Positions 1,249-13,031 of a stretch of 13,031 bases of DNA are shown in pieces. The notes under the pieces are model-generated. The model saw only the letters and a list, made by a program, of their open reading frames with translations, did not search any database and was not told the origin of the DNA. Numbering within the stretch: the first letter of the stretch is position 1; each line of letters starts with the position of its first letter. Made by a program: the position numbers and the translations under genes. The stretch is from IMG/VR virus record IMGVR_UViG_2548876858_000019; one strand, 5' to 3'. Origin of the DNA: a virus (lineage: Duplodnaviria; Heunggongvirae; Uroviricota; Caudoviricetes).

Positions 1249-1330
1249 ACGTAAACTTTTTCCGGTTGTTGTCGATATCTCCATATCCCTCAACCGGAAA
1301 ATAATAATACAAAAATGCTTAGCCCTGCTA

Positions 1331-1564
1331 ATAATCGCCTAATCCAAACGCCTCATTCATGTTCTGGTACAGTCGCTCAAATGTACTCCGGATACGCGGT
1401 TCGCTGATTTCCAGGACATTGTCGTCATTCAGCGACCTGTCCCGTGTATCACGGGCCTGCGAATTCATCAAGGAATGCATTGCAGAGTGAAGTATCGAGT
1501 CACGCCATATTTCGCTATCAGGATTCTGTATGATGGTTACATCGCCCGGCCCAGGGCTGTTTAG
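1331..1564 (-). pseudogene. possible 3' remnant of a disrupted gene (start-less open frame)
   Basis: Minus-strand frame open for about 78 codons, ending ...EISEPRIRSTFERLYQNMNEAFGLGDY at TAG (1328-1330), protein-like composition but no upstream start; lies between cscB and the att repeat. Confidence 0.2.
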
Positions 1565-1711: not shown

Positions 1712-1761
1712 AATGTATTTATATCTATGTTTTATAAAGGTAATTTAAGTGGTTGTTTTGT

Positions 1762-1784
1762 TGATACCATCATGGATACCATCA
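1762..1784 (+). repeat. tandem direct repeat GATACCATCA x2, candidate integrase arm-type sites
   Basis: GATACCATCAtgGATACCATCA about 50 bp inside the element from the att core. Confidence 0.3.
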
Positions 1785-2124
1785 AACGATAAAAACATCT
1801 CATTAAGGCCATAGAGATCGGCCTATTCCGTCAGTTTCAATAATGAATAGTTGGATGAAAAAACGACGGGGCAGGGGGCTGGCAAATCTGCGAAAAGGTT
1901 GAAAAATGCGCAAAAAAGTTATCACACCCCACGCATTATACAATGCTGCTCGCAAACCAGCGCCAACTCTGGGAAGTCAGGGGGATACACCCTAAAGTAT
2001 TTTTTTCATTTTATGTATACCAGAATGGCTTTAAATCACTCACCATCCAGCGCTATAACCGGGTTTAACCGTGTATACCATCCCCCATGTGATATGACGT
2101 ATTCTCATTCATAAAACCCTTTAT

Positions 2125-2200
2125 TGTATCGAATTTGACACAATACCCGCCCGCAGTAATCAGACCGTCAAGCAAATATCGTTGTACTGTTCACGACACA
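2125..2200 (+). promoter_or_regulatory. two TGT-N12-ACA dyads (Ogr/Delta-box-like) upstream of the portal gene
   Basis: TTGTATCGAATTTGACACAA (2124-2143) and TTGTACTGTTCACGACACAC (2182-2201); each has exact TGT-N12-ACA spacing and shares 14-15 of 20 positions with the dyad upstream of the sid-like gene. Confidence 0.4.
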
Positions 2201-2236
2201 CCTGATCACTCAAGAATTGTTCACAGCGAGAAAAAT

Positions 2237-3262
2237 ATGGATAACCCGGACAAAACTCCCGTACCTGAGGTCACTGTAGCAACAGAACCGCAGCCCTCTG
2301 CAGAATGCTTCACCTTTGGCGATCCCATTCCGGTACTGGACCGGCGCGAGCTGCTTGATTATGTGGAGTGCGTACAGATTGATCGCTGGTATGAACCGCC
2401 GGTCAGTTTTGCCGGGCTGGCACGTACCTACCGCGCTGCCGTGCATCACAGTTCACCAATTGCTGTTAAGCGTGACATTCTCAGCAGCACCTTCATCCCA
2501 CACCGCTTGCTCAGCCAGCAGTCTTTCGCCCGTTTCGTTCAGGATTATCTGGTGTTTGGTAATGCTTATCTGGAAAAGCGCACCAACTGGCTGGGTGATG
2601 TCCTCTCACTGGAGCCAGCGCTGGCAAAGTATACCCGGCGCGGCGTTGACCTAGAATCCTACTGGTTTGTGAACTACGGCCTGACGATGCAGCCTTATGA
2701 GTTCACCAGAGGCAACATTTTTCATCTGATGGAGCCGGATATTAACCAAGAGATTTACGGGCTGCCCGGTTATCTCTCCGCCATTCCGTCAACCCTGCTC
2801 AACGAGTCCGCAACGCTGTTCCGTCGGAAATATTACATCAACGGCAGCCATGTAGGCTTCATCATGTACATGACCGACGCTGCGCAGAATCAGGAGGATG
2901 TGAACAACATCCGCAAGGCAATGAAAAGTGCCAAAGGACCGGGCAATTTTCGCAATCTCTTTATGTACTCACCCAATGGCAAAAAAGATGGCATCCAGAT
3001 CATCCCCCTATCCGAAGTTGCGGCGAAAGATGAGTTTCTGAACATCAAGAACGTGAGCCGTGATGACATGATGGCAGCGCACCGTGTGCCACCGCAGATG
3101 ATGGGAATCATGCCGAGTAACGTTGGGGGGTTTGGAGATGTAGAAAAAGCCAGCCGTGTTTTTGTTCGCAACGAACTGATGCCGCTACAGAAGCGACTGC
3201 AGGAACTGAACGACTGGTGTGGCGAGAAAATAATTAGTTTTGAACCTTATACACTTGAGTAA
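2237..3262 (+). CDS. phage portal protein, P2 Q / PBSX-type
   Basis: 341 aa from ATG 2237 (track ORF starts at TTG 2135; trimmed); portal-like clip motif RDDMMAAHRVPPQMMGI; length close to P2 Q as I recall it; ends at TAA 3260-3262 before a terminator. Confidence 0.7.
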   Translation: MDNPDKTPVPEVTVATEPQPSAECFTFGDPIPVLDRRELLDYVECVQIDRWYEPPVSFAGLARTYRAAVHHSSPIAVKRDILSSTFIPHRLLSQQSFARFVQDYLVFGNAYLEKRTNWLGDVLSLEPALAKYTRRGVDLESYWFVNYGLTMQPYEFTRGNIFHLMEPDINQEIYGLPGYLSAIPSTLLNESATLFRRKYYINGSHVGFIMYMTDAAQNQEDVNNIRKAMKSAKGPGNFRNLFMYSPNGKKDGIQIIPLSEVAAKDEFLNIKNVSRDDMMAAHRVPPQMMGIMPSNVGGFGDVEKASRVFVRNELMPLQKRLQELNDWCGEKIISFEPYTLE

Positions 3263-3263
3263 T

Positions 3264-3289
3264 AAAAAAGCCACTGAAGTGGCTTTTTT
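3264..3289. terminator. bidirectional rho-independent terminator between portal gene and gene Y
   Basis: AAAAAAGCCAC-TGAA-GTGGCTTTTTT: GC stem with 4-nt loop flanked by A6 and T6, so a U-run follows the hairpin on both strands; 1 bp after portal stop and 8 bp after Y stop. Confidence 0.65.
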
Positions 3290-3291
3290 AT

Positions 3292-4257
3292 TTAATCGGG
3301 AAGGTTACGTAAATCGATATATGAGAAAAATGCGGCACCTTTCTCAGTTAACTCGTATCGAAGATATCGATTTTCCATTATTGGCGTTGTTTTGAGTAGG
3401 CCATGGACCATCATTAACGTGCAAACATTTCTAACCAAAAAACCAGCTAAGTCAGTCGAATTTGATCTTAACCCAGAAAGAATAGTTCCTCTATACAGCA
3501 AAATGAGTCGCATTGCTGTTGTTTTAACTGGCTCTGGAGTTTCGGATAATTTTGTCGGGATCGTTAACTGTGTATTTTCAAATAGCTTATATATTTTACT
3601 GAACTCTTCCTCAGATGGTTTTTTTACTATAGCTTTACTTTCAGGAGAACGTGCAGCTCTGAGAAGTTCAACCTCAGATTTTAAAGCTTCATTTTCCTTC
3701 GTTAGTTTAGATATTTGTTCTATTAACACACTTGACTCTGATATTTCCTTTCCAGAAACCCACCCAAGGAGATTTCTCTCGACACCAATTTGAGGAAGTG
3801 TCTTATAAATTGATATTTGTATATCTTTAATATCCCGAAAAAATTCCACCGGATACCCCTTGACCTTTTGTTTGAAAGCTTCATATTTTGTCGGGTTATC
3901 TAATTCAAGAACTTCCTTACCAACTGTTTTAACTTTTTCATCTAGATATTCGTCATCAATGACTATCGAAAATAGAGGTTTGTTTGTACTTAAAGCATAA
4001 TCATATTCGAGCTCTGTATAGCAATAATCACTGCCGGGAGCAATCGTTCCATAACGCCCTCCCAGAATAAGGATGTAGATATCTGACTCATCTATCCAGC
4101 GCTTAATAATTTCTAACTGGCTTCTGTCTCCAGGCTTAAATAGCTCCATTCCCGCAGGTATATGCCCGGCAGTTAATATGGCACTTACCGCAGCTTGCCT
4201 TTCTTCAATGAGGTCTGTAAAAGTTGATGAAATGAAAACTTGAAATTTCCTATTCAT
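3292..4257 (-). CDS. DUF4062-like domain protein with coiled-coil and C-terminal domain of unknown function (candidate defence cargo)
   Basis: 321 aa from ATG 4255-4257; N-terminus MNRKFQVFISSTFTDLIEERQAAV...ILILGGRYGTIAPGSDYCYTELEYDYA fits the FISSTF/ER/GGRYG/TExEY signature I associate with DUF4062; central coiled-coil (ISKLTKENEALKSEVELLRAA); visibly AT-rich; terminators on both sides. Confidence 0.8.
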   Translation of the reverse strand: MNRKFQVFISSTFTDLIEERQAAVSAILTAGHIPAGMELFKPGDRSQLEIIKRWIDESDIYILILGGRYGTIAPGSDYCYTELEYDYALSTNKPLFSIVIDDEYLDEKVKTVGKEVLELDNPTKYEAFKQKVKGYPVEFFRDIKDIQISIYKTLPQIGVERNLLGWVSGKEISESSVLIEQISKLTKENEALKSEVELLRAARSPESKAIVKKPSEEEFSKIYKLFENTQLTIPTKLSETPEPVKTTAMRLILLYRGTILSGLRSNSTDLAGFLVRNVCTLMMVHGLLKTTPIMENRYLRYELTEKGAAFFSYIDLRNLPD

Positions 4258-4518
4258 TTTTTATCCATATAGAGTTATTGTCATCTAACATACCTACAAA
4301 ATGCTATAGGTAAATTTAAGTTGGTATTATTAGTCTTTTACTAGTATCTAATGCTGAAAAAGTTGATGAAAGAAAGACATTAGACGCAGATACCAACATC
4401 AGAGCATAATCATATGATATAGGTTAAAGCGTGTTCAAGACCGATTAACGTAAGTTCCCTAGATCTCCCCTCAGCGCGAGCAGCCCCGCCCGCCTGCCCG
4501 CTTCGCTTAACAGAATGG

Positions 4519-4632
4519 TTTTCATGCACCCCGTAAATCGCCTCAGGAGCCGCCACACAAGGGCTTTCACGTCAAAAATGATGCATGAGACTCATGCGTT
4601 TTCATGCGCCATAGACATGCACTCATGCGCTC
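4519..4632. repeat. cluster of CATGC-containing direct repeats (TTTTCATGC x2, ACTCATGCG x2, six CATGC cores)
   Basis: Seen at 4519-4527, 4599-4607 (TTTTCATGC) and 4589-4597, 4621-4629 (ACTCATGCG), plus further CATGC at 4583 and 4616; intergenic between Delta terminator and Y promoter region. Confidence 0.35.
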
Positions 4633-4656
4633 TCAGGCCAGCCAGGAAAAAGGCGT

Positions 4657-4683
4657 AAAAAATCCCGGTGCCGGGCCGGGATT
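4657..4683 (-). terminator. rho-independent terminator of the sid-delta operon
   Basis: AATCCCGG-(7 nt)-CCGGGATT hairpin 4661-4683, followed on the minus strand by TTTTTTACGCC; 21 bp downstream of the Delta stop. Confidence 0.6.
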
Positions 4684-4703
4684 AGGTAGGCGTTTTTTGC
4701 TAA

Positions 4704-4976
4704 TCAGACAGGGATTTGCTGGCGGCTTGATAACTTTGATGCAGAGCCATAGCGATTGAGCGTTTGCTGTTGTTTTTCCGGCATTTGTGCTTTGTCTGAT
4801 TCCTGTTCATTGCGCCGGGGCTTCATAATTATCTTATCCACACTTTCCAGAGCGGTAAATGTGCAGGAACATTCAAGATTCTGGCACTGATACCATGAGC
4901 GTTTAACCGACGGTGCTTCATAGGCGGTGGTTCTGGCGTGTGCAACGGTGCCGCATTCAGGACATTTCAGCGCCAT
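4704..4976 (-). CDS. Ogr/Delta-family zinc-finger late-gene transcription activator
   Basis: 90 aa, MALKCPECGTVAHARTTAY...YQCQNLECSCTF: C-x2-C...C-x4-C motif and overall pattern of P2 Ogr / P4 Delta; ATG overlaps the TGA of the upstream sid-like gene (ATGA). Confidence 0.85.
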   Translation of the reverse strand: MALKCPECGTVAHARTTAYEAPSVKRSWYQCQNLECSCTFTALESVDKIIMKPRRNEQESDKAQMPEKQQQTLNRYGSASKLSSRQQIPV

Positions 4977-5737
4977 CAGATACCCTCCATATCACGGTTA
5001 CGTTTCTGCAGCTCTTCACGTTCCTGACGGATCTTCATTTTGTGAAGGGCCGCCGGTGACGGGATTTTGCTTAAATCGACACGAGCCGCATAATCCGGCG
5101 CAACGCCCGCCAGTTTAAACACAGGGTCCAGTTCCGGCATCGCAGTGTTAGCAAGAGCCGGTTTGGTGATATGTTTGTGAATAAAGTCTTTCAGCAGTGT
5201 GTCCGGGTCATTAACTGAATTCACCACCCCCACAACGGCACTGGCTTCCCGCCCCATTGTGGTTTTGAGCAGGCTCAGTGTCTGGATTAACGCCTTACCA
5301 TGCGCCTGCATGAAGTCTTCCCAGATTTGCTTTGCGCGAATTTCCACAAGGGTGTTATGTGCGCTGATATACTGCCCGGCTAATTTCCCGGCTTCCTGCG
5401 GTAATAAGGCATTTTCGCTTTCCTGAGCTGCCAGCAGTTCATCAAAATCCTCAAGCGTTTCTCGTCCCAGCGCAATTTCCGTGCGCAGTTTTTTCATTTC
5501 CTTTGAGACTACGCCCTGACTTTCACGAAACAGCGTGCGCCACTCCTCATTCAGCGCGTTCGTCGTGGCTTCCATTTCAGCCCGGCGCTGGCGGATTGTC
5601 GCAATATTATCCGCTGCCGCTTTCTGCCGACGACGTGCTTCAAGCCATGCGCTTCTGGCTGTATTCAGGGTTTCCATTGCCTGCTGCGTTACAGCCGGAA
5701 AAGTGGAAAGGTTGTTATTCTCTGCGGTGTTGTTCAT
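4976..5737 (-). CDS. Sid/Psu-family protein (P4 capsid size determination-like; Psu-like not excluded)
   Basis: 253 aa, coiled-coil rich; segment AGQYISAHNTLVEIRAKQIWEDFMQAHGKALIQTL matches the Psu/Sid family pattern as I recall it; sits directly upstream of and coupled to delta as sid does in P4; AGGAGA Shine-Dalgarno before ATG 5735-5737. Confidence 0.65.
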   Translation of the reverse strand: MNNTAENNNLSTFPAVTQQAMETLNTARSAWLEARRRQKAAADNIATIRQRRAEMEATTNALNEEWRTLFRESQGVVSKEMKKLRTEIALGRETLEDFDELLAAQESENALLPQEAGKLAGQYISAHNTLVEIRAKQIWEDFMQAHGKALIQTLSLLKTTMGREASAVVGVVNSVNDPDTLLKDFIHKHITKPALANTAMPELDPVFKLAGVAPDYAARVDLSKIPSPAALHKMKIRQEREELQKRNRDMEGI

Positions 5738-5771: not shown

Positions 5772-5827
5772 TGTGTCGTGACTGACACAAGCGCACTATC
5801 GGCGCTCAGTGTGTGGTGGCTGGCACA
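5772..5827 (-). promoter_or_regulatory. Psid-like late promoter with two Delta-box dyads
   Basis: TGT-N12-ACA at 5772-5789 (within TTGTGTCGTGACTGACACAA) and at 5810-5827; centres 38 bp apart and about 43 and 81 bp upstream of the sid-like ATG, consistent with activator sites near -18 and -55. Confidence 0.55.
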
Positions 5828-5914
5828 ACGGGCGTTTGCGGTTATTCAGACGCGGCCATGACAGCCAGCCAGATAAAAATGCCTCTGTTTCAGCCTGCTT
5901 TATGTCCCGGATGC

Positions 5915-6110
5915 GGTGAAACAGGTGGAACAGGTGTTACAGCATTGTTTTGTAAAACATTTATATGCACATCACAGGTGAAACATCGCAGGTAACAAGG
6001 TGGAACAGCGGATCGGCTGGCGTTCCACCTGTTCCACCTCACTATTTCAGAAGGTGAAACAGGTTTAGCCCTTGTAAAATACGGGTGTTCCACCTGTTTC
6101 ACCTGTTACC
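5915..6110. repeat. iteron array, candidate replication origin / crr-like site
   Basis: At least nine copies of the 9-mer GGTG(A/G)AACA or its complement TGTT(C/T)CACC: plus orientation at 5915, 5924, 5977, 5999, 6053; minus orientation at 6021/6030, 6086, 6095, with tandem pairs; AT-rich stretch 5941-5970 in the middle; 28 bp downstream of the primase stop. Confidence 0.7.
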
Positions 6111-6137: not shown

Positions 6138-8810
6138 TTAACCCGGCACCTCGCTGTTGAAGACATAGAGTCTGCGGGGATTCATCTCTGGCGGGCGAAT
6201 GGTTGTCTGCAGCTTGCCATCGGTGGAGGGCAGCAGGTATCCACGATCCGCGCACAGACGCGCCACCTTGCGCGGGTCAAATCCCCGGCAGATTTCTTTC
6301 CAGCCGGACGGCATGACGTAGAACGTGGTGACGGCCTCCGTGCCCTGCGCGGTACTGCCTTTCTCCACCCTGCGCCAGCCCACCATATTGCCGGGGCGGT
6401 TACGCTCGTCGTGCCAGTCAGCAAAGCGGCTGTACTGATTCGCGGTAAAGAAGCTGCGTACCTGCTCCAGTGCGGCAATATCTTCCTGATTGGCGGTGTG
6501 CCCGCGATCTTTCAGCCATGCGTTCAGGCAGACGCGGGTTGCCCGCAGCGCTTCACCCTCAGGCCAGCCGGTAATACCCAGCCGGGTTGCCAGCTCGCCC
6601 GCCATCGCCACCAGTGCAAAGCGGTTCACAGCCCGGCCTACCTGATTACCCGCATCTTTCGGGGTCAGGGCGGCTGTATATTCCTTCATCAGTGACTTTG
6701 CCTGTGCCGTCAGCCCGTTAAGGTCAGCGGTCAGGGCTTTCAGCCACTCCCTGAACGGCGAACCGTAGTAGCTGGACGTGGCCCACTCCAGATGTTCCGC
6801 CAGAGCCTTGCCGCTGTCGAAGCCGTGCAGCTCCTCAAATACGCCAAATTTCCCGGAATCGCTGGGGATCTGGATCATCCTGACTTCCATCCCGGCAAAG
6901 GTACGCTCACCGGCTTTTGCCGCATGTTCGGTCAGTGACAGCTCGCCGGTTGAAAAGAACAGCAGCCGCCACTGCTTACGGGTGCGCAGCTCACCGTCCG
7001 TACCGGCACGGCCCTTGCCCTGACCGTTTGCCAGCATGTAGGCGATATTACCCGCCTCGCGTCCGTCCACCTCCCGGATCTCATCGAGCATCATGGCGGC
7101 ATCGTTGCGGCGGCTGGCGCATCCCTCCAGCGCGTTGCCGGTTGCCCGCCACGTCTGCCAGTAATCAGGCCCGCCACAAACGGAGGTTGCCGCTTTCATG
7201 GTGGTGGTCTTACCGTCAGTCGATTCCCCCTTGAGGTGGTAGCCGCCGCCGTCCATCCCAACCAGCCGTAACAGGGGTGCAGCAAAGGCCAGACTGACGG
7301 CAAACGCCACGCGGGAGTTACCGGTGCAGTAACGGGAAACGTGCTCCCGCCATTCCTCCGTTGTACCTGACACACGGAAATCGCGCCCCTGCACGGAAGT
7401 GGTCTGGAGAATGACACCCTCTGCACCTTCACCGCTGACCTCATCCTGCAGGACGTAAACCTGACCATGCCAGCCAGTGCGGCTGACGCAGGTCACGCGG
7501 CGTTCCGGTTTACACAGCGAGATATATTCCATCAGGCGGGCGCGGGCCTCACCGGTGGTGCTGATATAGGACAGCCCGTTAACCAGCAGTACCCGGCGTA
7601 GTTCCTCACCGCTACCACTGAGCATTTCCATCGGCATCGCCCAGCGGCGGCGCTCTCCCCATGTATCTTCCCACTCCAGCAGTCGCCCGAAATTACCGCC
7701 ATCAGCATCGCAGGTGATTGCCGTCACGCGCAACGGGTTGCATATTTTGACGTTCTGGATCTCCGTCTCACCGTTGCGCTGTACCTGTTTTTCATACCAG
7801 AGATATTCCTGGGTAAGACGGAACCCGTGCGGCAACTGCGTGCGGCCTTCTCCGCACAGTACAAGACCGTTACGAAAGGCTTCACGGGCACGTGTAATAC
7901 CGTGCTCACGGTGGAAGTCATTCCAGTCAGCTTTAATTTCTCCCGGTGGCAGCGTCACCCAGCCACCGACTGATTTTGCCGCCCGTTCAGCAAAGGATCT
8001 GCCGGGATTCTCGCCCCCGTCCTGAAAATCGTTATCACCGGCGATGATAATTTTTACCTCAGGCCAGCGTGCCCGCAGCGCCTGTGCGACGTTGGGCAGG
8101 TTGCCCGCCGATATGGCCGCCACTACGCATCCGGCGGTGAGCTGGCTTACCGTCAGCGCCGTGGCGTAACCTTCGGTAATCACCACCTGTACCGGCGGTT
8201 CAGACGGTAACGGGCTGAGCGCCACAAACGCGCCTTTCATCGTGCTGCCGGGCAGTATGCTTTTTTCACCCGTCGGGGCGATAAGCTGTGCACCGGTCAC
8301 GGCTCCGGCGTTCGTCGTGAGCGGTAACAGCAGGGAACCGGCAGGGAAATCCTTACCACTGATATGCTGCACGCTCCCGGTCAGGGAGGCCGGGTATCCG
8401 GCGAACCCTTTTCCGGTCAGATAGGGGCTTTCTCCCGTGTGACTCTCTTTCATCAGGGCCGCCACGGTAAGGCTCATATCGCGTTTAGGGGCTTTTTGCC
8501 TGGCGGGCTTAACGGGCAGTTCCTGCACATCCGGCACATTAAGCACCTGCGCCACCTCCTGCGCTGCCTTTCTGATGCCGTAACCGGTTATGAGCTTAAC
8601 CAGATCCAGACCATCACCATTGCCGCACTGGCTGCAAATCCACGTCCCGCGCCCGTCGAGGTCATCGAGGCGGAAGCGATCCTTGCCCCCACATTTCGGG
8701 CAGGGACCGTGCCTGCCGTTTTCAGGTACATCAATACGCAGCATCTGCAGAATGACGGGCCATTTTCCCCGCGCTGCGGCTGAAATCTGCGTAACCGTCT
8801 GTGTTGTCAT
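6138..8810 (-). CDS. P4 alpha-type primase-helicase (zinc finger + Toprim + P-loop NTPase)
   Basis: 890 aa; N-terminal HGPCPKCGG...CSQCGNGDG zinc finger; Toprim-like ITEGYATALTV and IIAGDNDFQDGG; Walker A GESTDGKTT; GGGGGA Shine-Dalgarno; ATG overlaps the TGA of the upstream ORF. Confidence 0.85.
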   Translation of the reverse strand: MTTQTVTQISAAARGKWPVILQMLRIDVPENGRHGPCPKCGGKDRFRLDDLDGRGTWICSQCGNGDGLDLVKLITGYGIRKAAQEVAQVLNVPDVQELPVKPARQKAPKRDMSLTVAALMKESHTGESPYLTGKGFAGYPASLTGSVQHISGKDFPAGSLLLPLTTNAGAVTGAQLIAPTGEKSILPGSTMKGAFVALSPLPSEPPVQVVITEGYATALTVSQLTAGCVVAAISAGNLPNVAQALRARWPEVKIIIAGDNDFQDGGENPGRSFAERAAKSVGGWVTLPPGEIKADWNDFHREHGITRAREAFRNGLVLCGEGRTQLPHGFRLTQEYLWYEKQVQRNGETEIQNVKICNPLRVTAITCDADGGNFGRLLEWEDTWGERRRWAMPMEMLSGSGEELRRVLLVNGLSYISTTGEARARLMEYISLCKPERRVTCVSRTGWHGQVYVLQDEVSGEGAEGVILQTTSVQGRDFRVSGTTEEWREHVSRYCTGNSRVAFAVSLAFAAPLLRLVGMDGGGYHLKGESTDGKTTTMKAATSVCGGPDYWQTWRATGNALEGCASRRNDAAMMLDEIREVDGREAGNIAYMLANGQGKGRAGTDGELRTRKQWRLLFFSTGELSLTEHAAKAGERTFAGMEVRMIQIPSDSGKFGVFEELHGFDSGKALAEHLEWATSSYYGSPFREWLKALTADLNGLTAQAKSLMKEYTAALTPKDAGNQVGRAVNRFALVAMAGELATRLGITGWPEGEALRATRVCLNAWLKDRGHTANQEDIAALEQVRSFFTANQYSRFADWHDERNRPGNMVGWRRVEKGSTAQGTEAVTTFYVMPSGWKEICRGFDPRKVARLCADRGYLLPSTDGKLQTTIRPPEMNPRRLYVFNSEVPG

Positions 8811-10393: not shown

Positions 10394-10603
10394 TTATTTA
10401 TCAGCATCTGAGGATTGAGCTTTTACCCACTGTCTAATTTCTTGTGCATCGTAAACAGTTACCCGTTTTGAAATACGTGTGGATTTTGGAAATTCAGGAT
10501 TGTTTTTTTCCCAGCGCCAGAGAGTAACTGTGCTTACTTGCAAAAAGTCAGCAGTAGCCCGTGGGCGGGCATGCCCGGTGATAGGGTAAGTTTTTAATGT
10601 CAT
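10394..10603 (-). CDS. alpA: AlpA/Vis-family phage transcriptional regulator
   Basis: 69 aa; TADFLQVSTVTLWRWEKNNPEFPKSTRISKRVTVYDAQEIRQWV fits the AlpA-type helix-turn-helix pattern; typical size and position next to a P4-type integrase. Confidence 0.7.
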   Translation of the reverse strand: MTLKTYPITGHARPRATADFLQVSTVTLWRWEKNNPEFPKSTRISKRVTVYDAQEIRQWVKAQSSDADK

Positions 10604-10710: not shown

Positions 10711-11685
10711 TTAAAATCTTCCTGCTTTAGATGAGCTAAGACATTCTTTTATCTTATCTTTTCCAAGTTCAACCTTTGTTTTTGGATTGTTTCTTTCTGC
10801 CACGATTTTATCTGCCCACGCGTCAATAGTCAGTTTTCCTCGTTTTCCATTGCAAGATGCTGGGTCATTTAGTAACCAATAAATAGCTGCTTTGTACACT
10901 GCCTCTCTTTTTGTTGCTGATGCTTCAACATTACCATGCACTCTTCGGATGCTTTCGATGCTGGATACACCACCATTCACATAGCTGGGTAGCTCTTTGC
11001 CAACACCGTTATCTAATTTTTCTATTTGGTATCTTGTTAAATAGATATCATCCAGTGTTATATTTCCAATAATATTTTTATTAGATGGAGATACTAATCC
11101 CTCTATTGATGATAAGCCTTCGAAAGGGGACATTGCTAATATTACCCACTCATCACTGCCAAATGCAGCATTAGTGAATGGCATATTAGCTTCTTTAAAA
11201 GAAATATCATGTGCTAATAGCCTTGCTTTACCATATACCTTTAGTTCTTTGTATAATGAAGATGTTGGGCTGATGACACATATAGACCACAATCCAGAAA
11301 GTAAGATTAATGGGCTTTTTATATTTGGTTTGTTTTCTAAATGGTATATTTGTTTTGGAGGTGAAAATGGCTTATCTTCTGTATAATCAATATCGAATTT
11401 TGCTTTTGGTATGAAATGGCTTAATGCAGATTTATTACTATAGTTTAATACTCTGGGTGGGTACATGTTTTCCCAATCTTTAAAATCTCCACCTTTACGC
11501 ATCATCATTAGCGCAGCTTCGAAACCATTTAATTCTAAGCAAAATTCGATAATTCCAATTTGAGCAAAATGGATAAGGTCATCAATTTGGCAATTAAGTA
11601 GTTCAGCAGCTCGTTTTAGGGAGCAAAATTCCATTACAGGAATACTATTCCTTTCCCAAACATTTAATCGTGTATTATCGCTCAT
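10711..11685 (-). CDS. hypothetical protein X, AT-rich, between integrase and alpA
   Basis: Track ORF starts at TTG 11763 overlapping the int stop; ATG 11683-11685 has a good AGGTGA Shine-Dalgarno and gives 324 aa starting MSDNTRLNVWERNSIPVMEF; no motif I can name; visibly AT-rich. Confidence 0.6.
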   Translation of the reverse strand: MSDNTRLNVWERNSIPVMEFCSLKRAAELLNCQIDDLIHFAQIGIIEFCLELNGFEAALMMMRKGGDFKDWENMYPPRVLNYSNKSALSHFIPKAKFDIDYTEDKPFSPPKQIYHLENKPNIKSPLILLSGLWSICVISPTSSLYKELKVYGKARLLAHDISFKEANMPFTNAAFGSDEWVILAMSPFEGLSSIEGLVSPSNKNIIGNITLDDIYLTRYQIEKLDNGVGKELPSYVNGGVSSIESIRRVHGNVEASATKREAVYKAAIYWLLNDPASCNGKRGKLTIDAWADKIVAERNNPKTKVELGKDKIKECLSSSKAGRF

Positions 11686-11759
11686 CACGTCACCTGTATG
11701 CACATATGGTAAAATGGGGCGAATAGCAGACTTTACTACTATTAGCCATTTTCTTATTT

Positions 11760-13031
11760 TCAAACAACGCGTAGTTTTTTCATTTTATAGGGGGCAATAT
11801 ATCTATCAGTGTTAGCTTCAATATAATTAGACCACCATTGCATCATCCGACGACGTTCATGCATATGCTGAGCTAAGTGTACATAAGCGGCTCGCACTTC
11901 ATTTCGTTCTTGATGGCTCATTTGCCGTTCTACTGCATCCCTCGACCATAAGCCTGATTCTGTCAGGGCTGAGCACGCCATTGCCCTAAATCCATGAAGG
12001 CAAATGTCCACCTGCGTGTCGTACCCCATAATTCTTAATGACTTATTAACTGTGTTCTCACTCATTGGTTTGTAAGGGTTACTATCTCCGGGGAAAATAA
12101 GTTCATACTCACCACTTATTTTTTTAATAGCTTCGAGAACATCAATAGCTTCATTAGATAATGGAACATAATGAATACTGCCCATTTTTGCCCCACGCTC
12201 TGAATATTTTACCCCATCAATTCTTTTTCTTTGAGCAGGAATAGTCCACATTGCATTTTCAAAATTAATTTCCTCCCATCTTGCGTGTCTCAGTTCACTG
12301 GAGCGAACAAAAGTATGAAGAGAAAATAATACTGCCAGCTTAGTTAACGGCCTCCCTGTATAGCTATCAATTTTTGATATTAATTCGGGTAATCGTTCTA
12401 ACGGAAGTGCAGGGCGATGCTTTATTTTGGGGCTGGAAATTGCTCCTCTTAGATCATGGGTAGGATTGTATTCAACAATTCCACGCTGAATAGCGTACCG
12501 GAAAACGCTTGCAAGAGTAGTTTTCACTCTTCCTGTTGTTGCTCCAATTCCCTGATCACTCATCCTCACCAATAATGGCAACAGGTCACTTGTTTTTAAT
12601 GAGTCGATGGGTTTATTTCCGATATATGGGAAAATATGATTTTCCATTTCTCTTAAAATTTTAGTGCGGGTAATCTCTTTCCATGAGGGATGGCCTATAG
12701 AGCCTTTATGCCACTCTAAAGCGATTGTCTGGAATGTAGCAGAGGCGGGTTCTGTTGGCGCTGCTTTTTTAGATACTCTGGGATCAACACCGTCGGCTAA
12801 AAGTTGCCTTGCTTCATCTCTACGCTTACGGGCAAGTGCCAGCGAAACGTCTGGGAAAACGCCCAAAGCCAGCGTAGCTTGTTTGCCGTTAAATCTGTAG
12901 TTCATTCGCCATGCCTTGGTCCCGTTCTTTTTAACTAAAAGATACAGGCTTCCCCCATCCGTCAGTTTGTAGTCTGTTTCTTTGGGTTTAGCGTTTTCAA
13001 CTTTCTTGGGTGATAGCTCATTTAGTGCCAT
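11760..13031 (-). CDS. tyrosine recombinase, P4 / CP4-57 IntA-type integrase
   Basis: 423 aa; N-terminal arm-binding region (YKLTDGGSLYLLVKKNGTKAWRMNYRFNGK); catalytic-region HGFR (HxxR) and tyrosine in RAAYVHL; start codon is the last three bases of the window, facing the presumed tRNA. Confidence 0.9.
   Translation of the reverse strand: MALNELSPKKVENAKPKETDYKLTDGGSLYLLVKKNGTKAWRMNYRFNGKQATLALGVFPDVSLALARKRRDEARQLLADGVDPRVSKKAAPTEPASATFQTIALEWHKGSIGHPSWKEITRTKILREMENHIFPYIGNKPIDSLKTSDLLPLLVRMSDQGIGATTGRVKTTLASVFRYAIQRGIVEYNPTHDLRGAISSPKIKHRPALPLERLPELISKIDSYTGRPLTKLAVLFSLHTFVRSSELRHARWEEINFENAMWTIPAQRKRIDGVKYSERGAKMGSIHYVPLSNEAIDVLEAIKKISGEYELIFPGDSNPYKPMSENTVNKSLRIMGYDTQVDICLHGFRAMACSALTESGLWSRDAVERQMSHQERNEVRAAYVHLAQHMHERRRMMQWWSNYIEANTDRYIAPYKMKKLRVV

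Follow-up and report, generated by a model that had tools for sequence, protein, structure and literature searches.

The DNA analysed here is a 13,031-nt stretch from the IMG/VR virus record IMGVR_UViG_2548876858_000019 (hereafter the window, meaning this stretch at its full length), and it carries a complete gene for a phage portal protein (positions 2237-3262, plus strand) inside a P4-like satellite of about 11 kb. The window is E. coli chromosome; it starts with cscB (1-1248) and continues into an island that ends in the gene of a tyrosine integrase (11760-13031, minus strand), with a tRNA-Arg attachment site just past the window end. This island is the satellite, whose left edge is an att remnant at 1690. 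Positions 2100-5737 are 100% identical to the chromosome of E. coli strain UTME-8. The P4-like core gene set is complete: besides the integrase, we found an AlpA-type regulator (10394-10603, minus strand; PF05930), an alpha-type primase/helicase (6138-8810, minus strand; Zn_Ribbon_Prim, Toprim_3 and DUF927 domains, phrog_1139), a 253-amino-acid homologue of Sid, the external scaffold that sets the capsid size (4976-5737, minus strand; full-length match to P4 Sid, PDB 7JW1_E, E 1e-10; phrog_6165), and a Delta/Ogr-type zinc-finger activator of late genes (4704-4976, minus strand; PF04606, E 1e-16). No psu gene is present in the satellite, where cos directly follows Delta, and relatives with two Psu-family genes exist; the psu-less set corresponds to the 'Type B' category of SatelliteFinder. 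An Rfam scan of the whole window detected no RNA family.

The portal gene starts with ATG, has its sole stop codon at the end and keeps an intact reading frame over 341 codons. The first-pass annotation of this locus had called it a full-length P2 Q-type portal, and three family profiles bear this out by placing it in the gpQ/PBSX type: PF04860 (Pfam) scores 61.7 bits against a cutoff of 39.1, TIGR01540 portal_PBSX (NCBIfam) scores 339 bits against a cutoff of 166, and phrog_68 'portal protein' (PHROG) aligns residues 12-340 with profile positions 11-339 of 344 (E 3e-169). The kinship with P2 Q itself extends to the family, at 60% protein identity to P2 gpQ, and not to the subtype: the satellite portal is 83-92% identical to Fels-2/Cartapus-type portals of P2-like phages (85-86% to Cartapus and Fels-2 themselves), with 92% identity to Yersinia phage MLG42 and 91% to Klebsiella phage ST15-OXA48phi14.1 among deposited phages. 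Its sequence places it with the Fels-2/Cartapus type rather than near P2 Q.

The doubt whether the protein has a portal fold at all is answered by structure prediction. An AlphaFold model from a diverse alignment of 50%-cluster representatives reached a predicted local distance difference test score (pLDDT) of 86 and a predicted template modelling (TM) score of 0.81, and the top Foldseek matches of this model in the PDB were the portals of a gene transfer agent (GTA) and of HK97, with a probability of 1.0 and TM scores of about 0.57-0.60. Model and matches together support a portal fold (wing, stem, clip, crown). An earlier model from a shallow alignment, in which all sequences were more than 77% identical, had given a pLDDT of only 38 and was rebuilt with the cluster representatives. 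A phmmer search of the PDB sequences with the portal returned zero matches, i.e. no solved close homologue by sequence. The motif RDDMMAAHRVPPQMMGI, which had been read as a mark of the clip region, is indeed present at residues 275-291, where it covers the end of the helix 261-282 and the following loop of the AlphaFold model; by analogy with HK97-fold portals, it would belong to the stem/tunnel-loop region and not to the clip.

The portal gene lies inside the mobile satellite unit. The left boundary of the satellite is the distal att remnant (attR, 1690-1711), which resembles the 3' end of tRNA-Arg (argW) and which the first-pass annotation had already taken for the element boundary. The exact portal protein is encoded on many contigs, and in the ten places that we examined it belongs to the same element (portal, DUF4062, Delta, Sid, alpha ... 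integrase) with four left flanks. These four chromosomal contexts, i.e. cscB, dsdC, an omptin gene and a Lip_A_acyltrans-family gene, differ exactly up to 1690, from which point on they share the element. In 'isolate 12' (L006), the element has inserted cleanly between dsdC and tRNA-Arg; a 16-nt repeat bounds it on either side and matches the 3' end of the tRNA-Arg next to the integrase. Since the same element thus recurs at four flanks with its boundary exactly at 1690, and since the insertion in L006 is clean, the portal must be counted as part of the satellite. The att 16-mer occurs a single time in the window. We found no terminase open reading frame or remnant in the window; as had been noted before, only 525 bp of non-coding DNA separate the portal ATG from the att remnant. 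Neither the window nor any satellite locus has further P2 genes (P, O, N, M, L, tail genes, gpA) near Q. A separate P2 remnant with an att site of its own, considered as another home for the portal, was rejected in view of the single att copy, the position of the portal within the mobile unit and the lack of further P2 genes.

Next to the att remnant lies a non-coding arm (1712-2082) that is typical of the argW satellites: positions 1690-2082 are 96% identical to the portal-less satellite AH21 (L022), and the leuX-type satellites carry another sequence here. Homology to the AH21 backbone stops at 2082 and resumes at 4480, and the interval in between (2083-4479) is a variable, cos-adjacent hotspot that holds the portal module and a DUF4062 gene. 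AH21, with a backbone that is 98-99% identical, carries at the same site a single gene for a 663-amino-acid HATPase_c_3 protein in place of DUF4062 and portal. The absence of the portal from so similar a backbone marks the portal module as swappable hotspot content and not as a core gene. A link between portal carriage and the loss of psu was considered and rejected, as the portal-less AH21 also lacks psu.

The cargo gene of the hotspot encodes a 321-amino-acid DUF4062-domain protein (3292-4257, minus strand; PF13271, E 3e-28), a candidate defence gene that is 38% identical to a DUF4062 single-gene system among the P2-encoded hotspot loci of Rousset 2022, Table S5 (PMC9122126). PADLOC gave no matches for the portal, the DUF4062 protein, a 120-amino-acid cargo protein described below and a 350-amino-acid open reading frame near the integrase. 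Portal and DUF4062 genes are convergent and share a bidirectional terminator (3261-3292), in which runs of A and T enclose a perfect inverted repeat of 15 bp. The AT-rich leader of the DUF4062 gene (4258-4471, minus strand) contains candidate sigma-70-like promoters at 4438-4409 and 4284-4256, which are consensus matches only.

The hotspot ends at a cos-like site, GCATGAAAACC...GCGGGCAGGCG-GGCGGGG (4472-4527, minus strand), where the backbone homology to AH21 ends as well. The first-pass annotation had proposed a search of 1712-4703 for the 19-nt cohesive-end sequence of P2 and P4; the canonical form gave no match with up to 3 mismatches allowed, and what we found instead is a variant of the cos of P2-like phages that has lost 1 nt and differs in its distal part. 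The variant can be aligned to the cos annotated in Cartapus and to a near-invariant motif in Fels-2, ST15-OXA48phi14.1, MLG42 and the E. coli E189 and ECONIH5 prophages. A DNA search of 3263-4703 against phages returned nothing, and the similarity of the cos region emerged only in a short-query search at a relaxed E-value. The satellite-form cos 18-mer occurs in 26 IMG/VR contigs, about 20 of which have delta and/or sid homologues and none of which has terminase or capsid genes. The satellite cos core has one base fewer than all cos sites of P2-like phages that we have seen. Beyond the core GGCAGGCGGGCGGGG (compared at 4472-4499 of the window, 11681-11708 of L006 and 4246-4273 of L045), the next 7-12 bases read CTGCTCGCGC, CAGCGCGCGC and CTGCGCACGT in satellites whose backbones are otherwise 98-99% identical. 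Because the bases past the core differ among near-identical backbones, hotspot swapping seems to break inside the presumed cohesive-end sequence.

Is the portal a peculiarity of this one satellite? The same gene at the same position had been proposed as a feature to look for in other P4-like elements, and it recurs in argW and in leuX satellites as a module of conserved promoter, satellite-specific acidic N-terminus and portal; the leuX-type relatives have a different integrase and are inserted at tRNA-Leu. The module occurs with three cargo types (DUF4062, the 120-amino-acid HAD-like protein and a 558-amino-acid protein) and, besides Escherichia, in Pantoea stewartii and Pseudocitrobacter vendiensis, and identical portal proteins carry Salmonella in their database names. 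The junction of promoter and N-terminus was found in 13 of 5426 complete E. coli genomes, in each case within these satellites; the 558-amino-acid cargo block had no match among the complete E. coli genomes. Protein clusters at 90% merge the satellite portals with those of phages under phage-type representatives, and a search for protein homologues cannot separate the two.

A few observations concern single members of this group. The 120-amino-acid cargo (L006, 11195-11557; L054, 7146-7508) begins with MGWIGVDLDGTLA, which holds a DxDxT motif typical of HAD-type phosphatases, and has distant homologues in many unrelated phages and no Pfam match. In KFu022 (H64, NZ_CP091677.1), the portal lacks its 5' part, with an annotated IS3 transposase at the breakpoint; this is the sole disrupted copy that we saw. 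In Pantoea stewartii ATCC 8199 (L052), a 1-nt deletion at the portal stop, near position 6760, lengthens the reading frame by about 26 codons, which overlap the start of the 120-amino-acid gene in another frame; the deletion may be genuine or may stem from a sequencing error in a homopolymer.

Upstream of the portal, an invariant dyad, TTGTATCGAATTTGACACAAT (2124-2144, plus strand; TGT-N12-ACA, dyad proper 2125-2142), is identical in all aligned satellites, and homology between satellites of different att types starts exactly at this dyad. We consider it the putative Ogr/Delta activator box of a late portal promoter. An invariant -10-like hexamer, TATCGT (2177-2182, plus strand), predicts a transcription start near 2189, and the box centre lies 56 bp before this predicted start; in the P2 record, the activator site lies at 56 bp (pP) and 55 bp (pO). 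Late promoters of P2 and P4 that depend on Ogr or Delta have such a dyad at about 55 bp before the start, together with a weak -35. A second conserved TGT-N12-ACA box (2183-2200, plus strand) is found inside the predicted portal leader. It has the same right half, TCACGACACA, as the Sid-proximal box, and its distance to the ATG is similar (45.5 vs 43.5 bp). The sid gene itself is preceded by two such boxes 38 bp apart (5772-5789 and 5810-5827; minus strand, together 5772-5827), which form a putative Psid-like late promoter and match what we take to be the -55/-18 arrangement of P4 Psid. Four of the five TGT-N12-ACA matches in the window thus lie directly upstream of sid (two) or of the portal (two). 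Over the 113 bp of promoter and leader, the p-distance among satellites is 0.05-0.11, well below the synonymous divergence. On this footing, we infer with good reason that the portal would be expressed late and under the control of Delta or Ogr from the putative promoter. A scan of contigs with the 21-nt dyad gave only 3 matches. One of them, an exact match in the contig JAKFCU010000029.1 of a Brevibacillus metagenome-assembled genome (L051, 7947-7967), sits at the edge of an 8-kb stretch in which we detected no portal or satellite genes, and may be due to chance or contamination.

In every P2-like phage whose layout we compared (Cartapus, Fels-2, ST15-OXA48phi14.1, the E. coli E189 prophage, p13P477T-2 and the ECONIH5 prophage), we found the portal, then a cargo gene and cos on the opposite strand, with the portal 3' end toward cos. 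The window shows the same order of cos, convergent cargo (DUF4062) and portal, minus the terminase gene: the phages carry P immediately upstream of the portal and the satellite does not. This shared layout agrees with an origin of the module at the left end of a P2-like genome. Between cos and Q, the P2-like element p13P477T-2 carries a 55% homologue of the 558-amino-acid cargo, which was also the only close P2-like match when the three cargo proteins were searched with tblastn against deposited phages. The last 20 or so residues of the portal change with each cargo type.

Exchange between phage and satellite is shown by one pair of genomes. The complete P2-like prophage of ECONIH5 (L054: terminase, portal, 120-amino-acid gene, cos) and the satellite of NCTC11023 (L007) share a 453-bp tract with zero mismatches, which comprises the last 63 nt of the portal, the whole 120-amino-acid gene and 24 nt beyond, and the identity of their portal genes, about 0.75-0.8 over the 5' half, climbs to 0.9-0.95 over the 3' half. 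The identical tract and the ramp of identity through the 3' half of the portal establish a recent exchange between phage and satellite in which a crossover fell within the portal gene. The first-pass annotation had offered two readings, the capture of a portal by the satellite and a cos-proximal recombination between a P4-like element and a P2-like phage. The common layout and the 453-bp tract speak for the latter, and the position inside the mobile unit, the satellite-only promoter and N-terminus, and the purifying selection described below speak for the former; our results support both as two successive stages of one history.

The same observations could be taken to mean that the gene serves only as a recombination arm, i.e. 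that portal and cos provide phage-like flanks for picking up cargo and that the protein is irrelevant or merely tolerated. A portal C-terminus that changes with the cargo, the tract shared with the P2-like prophage and the ramp of identity within the 3' half of Q are what such an arm would leave behind; moreover, the 3' half is not monophyletic relative to the phages, and the 558-amino-acid and DUF4062 cargo families fill the same slot in P2-like phages. What makes this account improbable is the state of the gene itself: the frame is intact in every copy examined bar the IS3-disrupted KFu022, the promoter is more conserved than the synonymous sites, and the 5' half, where the satellite-specific residues show no conversion from phages, has a ratio of non-synonymous to synonymous substitution rates (dN/dS) of 0.03-0.12. 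A role as recombination arm and a functional portal protein can coexist.

Compared with the roughly 145 nearest portals, the satellite portals have 14 unique residues, all at position 158 or before. They comprise an acidic N-terminus of about 21 residues, MDNPDK..PEVT..TE.Q.SAECF, which is found only in satellites (the phage portals are basic there), and the satellite-only residues C24, A59, S96, E140, S141, N146 and R158. The stem, clip and crown show no satellite-specific change. Over the whole portal gene, the synonymous divergence (dS) among satellites is 0.15-0.5 with dN/dS 0.045-0.10, corresponding to about 15-27 non-synonymous vs 33-84 synonymous changes between alleles. The first-pass annotation had proposed a test for premature stops or divergence; neither a stop nor a frameshift was present in any intact copy examined. 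In codons 22-158, dS is 0.08-0.41 between satellites and at least 0.67 between a satellite and any of four phages, and dN/dS is 0.03-0.12 among satellites and 0.03-0.05 among phages. The satellite portal is under purifying selection as strong as in phages.

The age of the module can be read from its surroundings. The neighbouring cargo genes show the same pattern of divergence as the portal, and the DUF4062 gene co-diverges with it (dS 0.52, dN/dS 0.05), but the backbone is near-identical, with dS 0.002-0.02 for sid and alpha and with delta identical in all but one satellite (L008). Since the portal diverged while the backbone stayed near-identical, the module must be old, co-diverging with its cargo and shuffled into near-identical backbones. 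This bears on whether the portal is a passive relic, i.e. flanking DNA that was carried along with a cargo gene from a P2-like phage, has no function and has not decayed so far. Phage-to-satellite transfer does occur, and the portal is rare, dispensable and situated in a region of very fast turnover, as a relic would be. Still, alleles that share the satellite-only promoter and N-terminus have reached dS 0.15-0.5 with no stop or frameshift in intact copies, the module has spread over several genera, and its divergence within a backbone of dS 0.002-0.02 implies that it is much older than its present hosts, all of which renders a relic very improbable.

A further account regards the portal as cargo for interference or defence. 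A portal switched on by the Ogr of an incoming or induced P2-like phage might mix into the portal rings of that phage or nucleate unproductive procapsids and so cut the yield of helper or competitor, or it might act as bait or trigger for an adjacent sensor. The gene does sit in a hotspot that otherwise holds anti-phage systems, with an Ogr/Delta-type box upstream, a variable candidate defence gene always adjoining it and altered residues at the N-terminus and at 59-158, a region that probably belongs to the wing. A decoy would be expected to lose or alter some of its surfaces, yet the constraint is as strong and even as in working phage portals and stem, clip and crown are unchanged; poisoned portals would also harm the packaging of the satellite itself, PADLOC found no match, and the partner gene varies between variants, unlike in a fixed two-gene system. 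We therefore hold interference to be unlikely, and consider it, like the arm-only and passive-relic accounts, weaker than that of a functional portal.

The explanation that we favour is a captured portal that is functional and expressed late, and that also acts as a recombination arm for the exchange of cargo with helper-type phages; for its functional part, the balance of evidence tips modestly in favour. A psu-less P4-like lineage acquired the portal from the left end, next to cos, of a P2-like phage of the Fels-2/Cartapus type, where the order is cos - cargo - Q. The Delta of the satellite or the Ogr of its helper would bind the invariant TGT-N12-ACA box about 56 bp upstream of the start, and the portal would then be transcribed from the multicopy, replicating satellite. 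The protein presumably forms the usual dodecameric ring and, with a stem, clip, tunnel-loop and crown that cannot be told apart from their phage counterparts, could dock the helper terminase and the head-completion and tail proteins; it may be incorporated into particles and may benefit the satellite. We speculate that the acidic propeptide, the A-to-C change by the processing site and the six substitutions at 59-158, probably in the wing, might be an adaptation to procapsid nucleation in the presence of Sid; alternatively, the satellite portal might just be an extra supply for the more numerous small capsids. Portal gene and cos flank the cargo slot as in P2-like phages and would allow cargo exchange by homologous recombination, as observed for one cargo gene.

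A bolder version is portal-level piracy, in which the satellite portal, by virtue of its acidic propeptide and the altered residues 59-158 in what is presumably the wing, would preferentially nucleate Sid-caged small procapsids or mark procapsids, and would double as a homology arm for the movement of defence cargo between helper and satellite. We regard this version as doubtful. If true, capsid hijacking in this lineage would operate by way of the portal vertex in addition to the external scaffold.

Several points weigh against a functional, late-expressed portal. The helper already supplies a portal. The module is rare, with those 13 among 5426 complete E. coli genomes, and the portal is dispensable for the satellite life cycle, as follows from its absence from AH21 with its 98-99% identical backbone. 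P2 promoters have no equivalent of the second portal box, which lies 58 bp further downstream than the first, and the five TGT-N12-ACA matches in the window compare with 2.8 expected, which is not significant by itself. In codons 159-320, satellite alleles are not clearly separate from phage alleles, and the low dN/dS there may in part be inherited from phage genes through recombination. The apparent monophyly of the 5' half draws on four phage DNA sequences together with protein-level signatures.

Some further features of the satellite and its flanks lie apart from the portal. A 50-amino-acid DUF4942 fragment (window 1328-1480, minus strand; L001 12080-12232), probably the remnant of an earlier argW island, separates cscB from the satellite and lies immediately beyond the att site. 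In EC1515 (L001, 24056-27445), torI and lambdoid/P22-like early genes (Rad52 family, ssb, anti-RecBCD) come after the satellite integrase in place of tRNA-Arg; the satellite stands there in tandem with another argW prophage, with no att repeat of at least 12 nt at the junction. The 350-amino-acid open reading frame adjoining the integrase (10711-11763, minus strand), without Pfam or PADLOC match and with a single weak match in PHROG, may be cargo of the integrase-proximal second hotspot described for P4-like elements. Between sid and alpha (5912-6104), a cluster of inverted and direct GGTGAAACAGGTGGAACA repeats may be a replication origin or a crr-like site; the repeats resemble what we take to be the TGTTCACC-type iterons of P4 ori/crr.

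How does this satellite compare with known systems? The portals of P2 (gpQ), Fels-2, Cartapus (Elveevirus) and ST15-OXA48phi14.1 (Peduoviridae) are of the same family, length and predicted fold as the satellite portal, which also shares with P2-like phages the orientation toward cos and the convergent cargo slot. It differs from them in having a promoter of its own and no terminase gene P ahead, and in reading AECF where the phages read AEAF, with six further unique substitutions at residues 59-158. The AECF/AEAF position presumably adjoins the processing site of P2 gpQ.

With P4 and the P4-like Type B satellites, the element shares the tRNA integrase, AlpA, the alpha primase, Sid, Delta, cos and a cos-adjacent hotspot, and its length of about 11 kb fits a small capsid. 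Unlike P4, it has a helper-type portal, and psu is missing from the present lineage. The literature describes P4-type satellites as lacking capsid parts of their own, and Delta as the one P4-specific gene for which P2-like phages have clear homologues (PMC8628076). No portal gene is mentioned by the surveys of P4-like satellites in the literature that we searched, and others may still have noted one.

Rousset et al. 2022 gave the two cos-adjacent hotspots separate descriptions (PMC9122126). The satellite resembles the gpA-gpQ defence hotspot of P2-like phages in that study in its order of cos, cargo and Q; cargo of the DUF4062 and 558-amino-acid types occurs there in phages, and one cargo gene is identical between a phage hotspot and a satellite. 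Unlike in the P2-like hotspot, a Sid-Delta module lies on the gpA side, and an att arm takes the place of gene P beyond Q. The ECONIH5/NCTC11023 case offers a concrete and datable exchange between phage and satellite, with the crossover mapped inside the portal gene.

P4-type satellites are textbook parasites that bring no capsid parts, and the present lineage carries an intact, selected portal of the helper type. P4-like satellites are thus not always free of capsid genes, and they do exchange DNA with their helpers. Does a satellite gain from a portal of its own? The lineage provides a one-gene system with known helpers in which to ask this question, and which bears likewise on whether the supply or the identity of the portal limits capsid hijacking and on the movement of defence cargo between helpers and satellites. 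A parallel is found in the capsid-forming phage-inducible chromosomal islands (cf-PICIs), which are also satellites that encode head components including a portal. These islands encode a whole head module of capsid, protease, portal, connectors, TerS and TerL, whereas the present satellite encodes the portal only, still depends on the capsid, scaffold and terminase of its helper, and uses a Sid-type size determinant.

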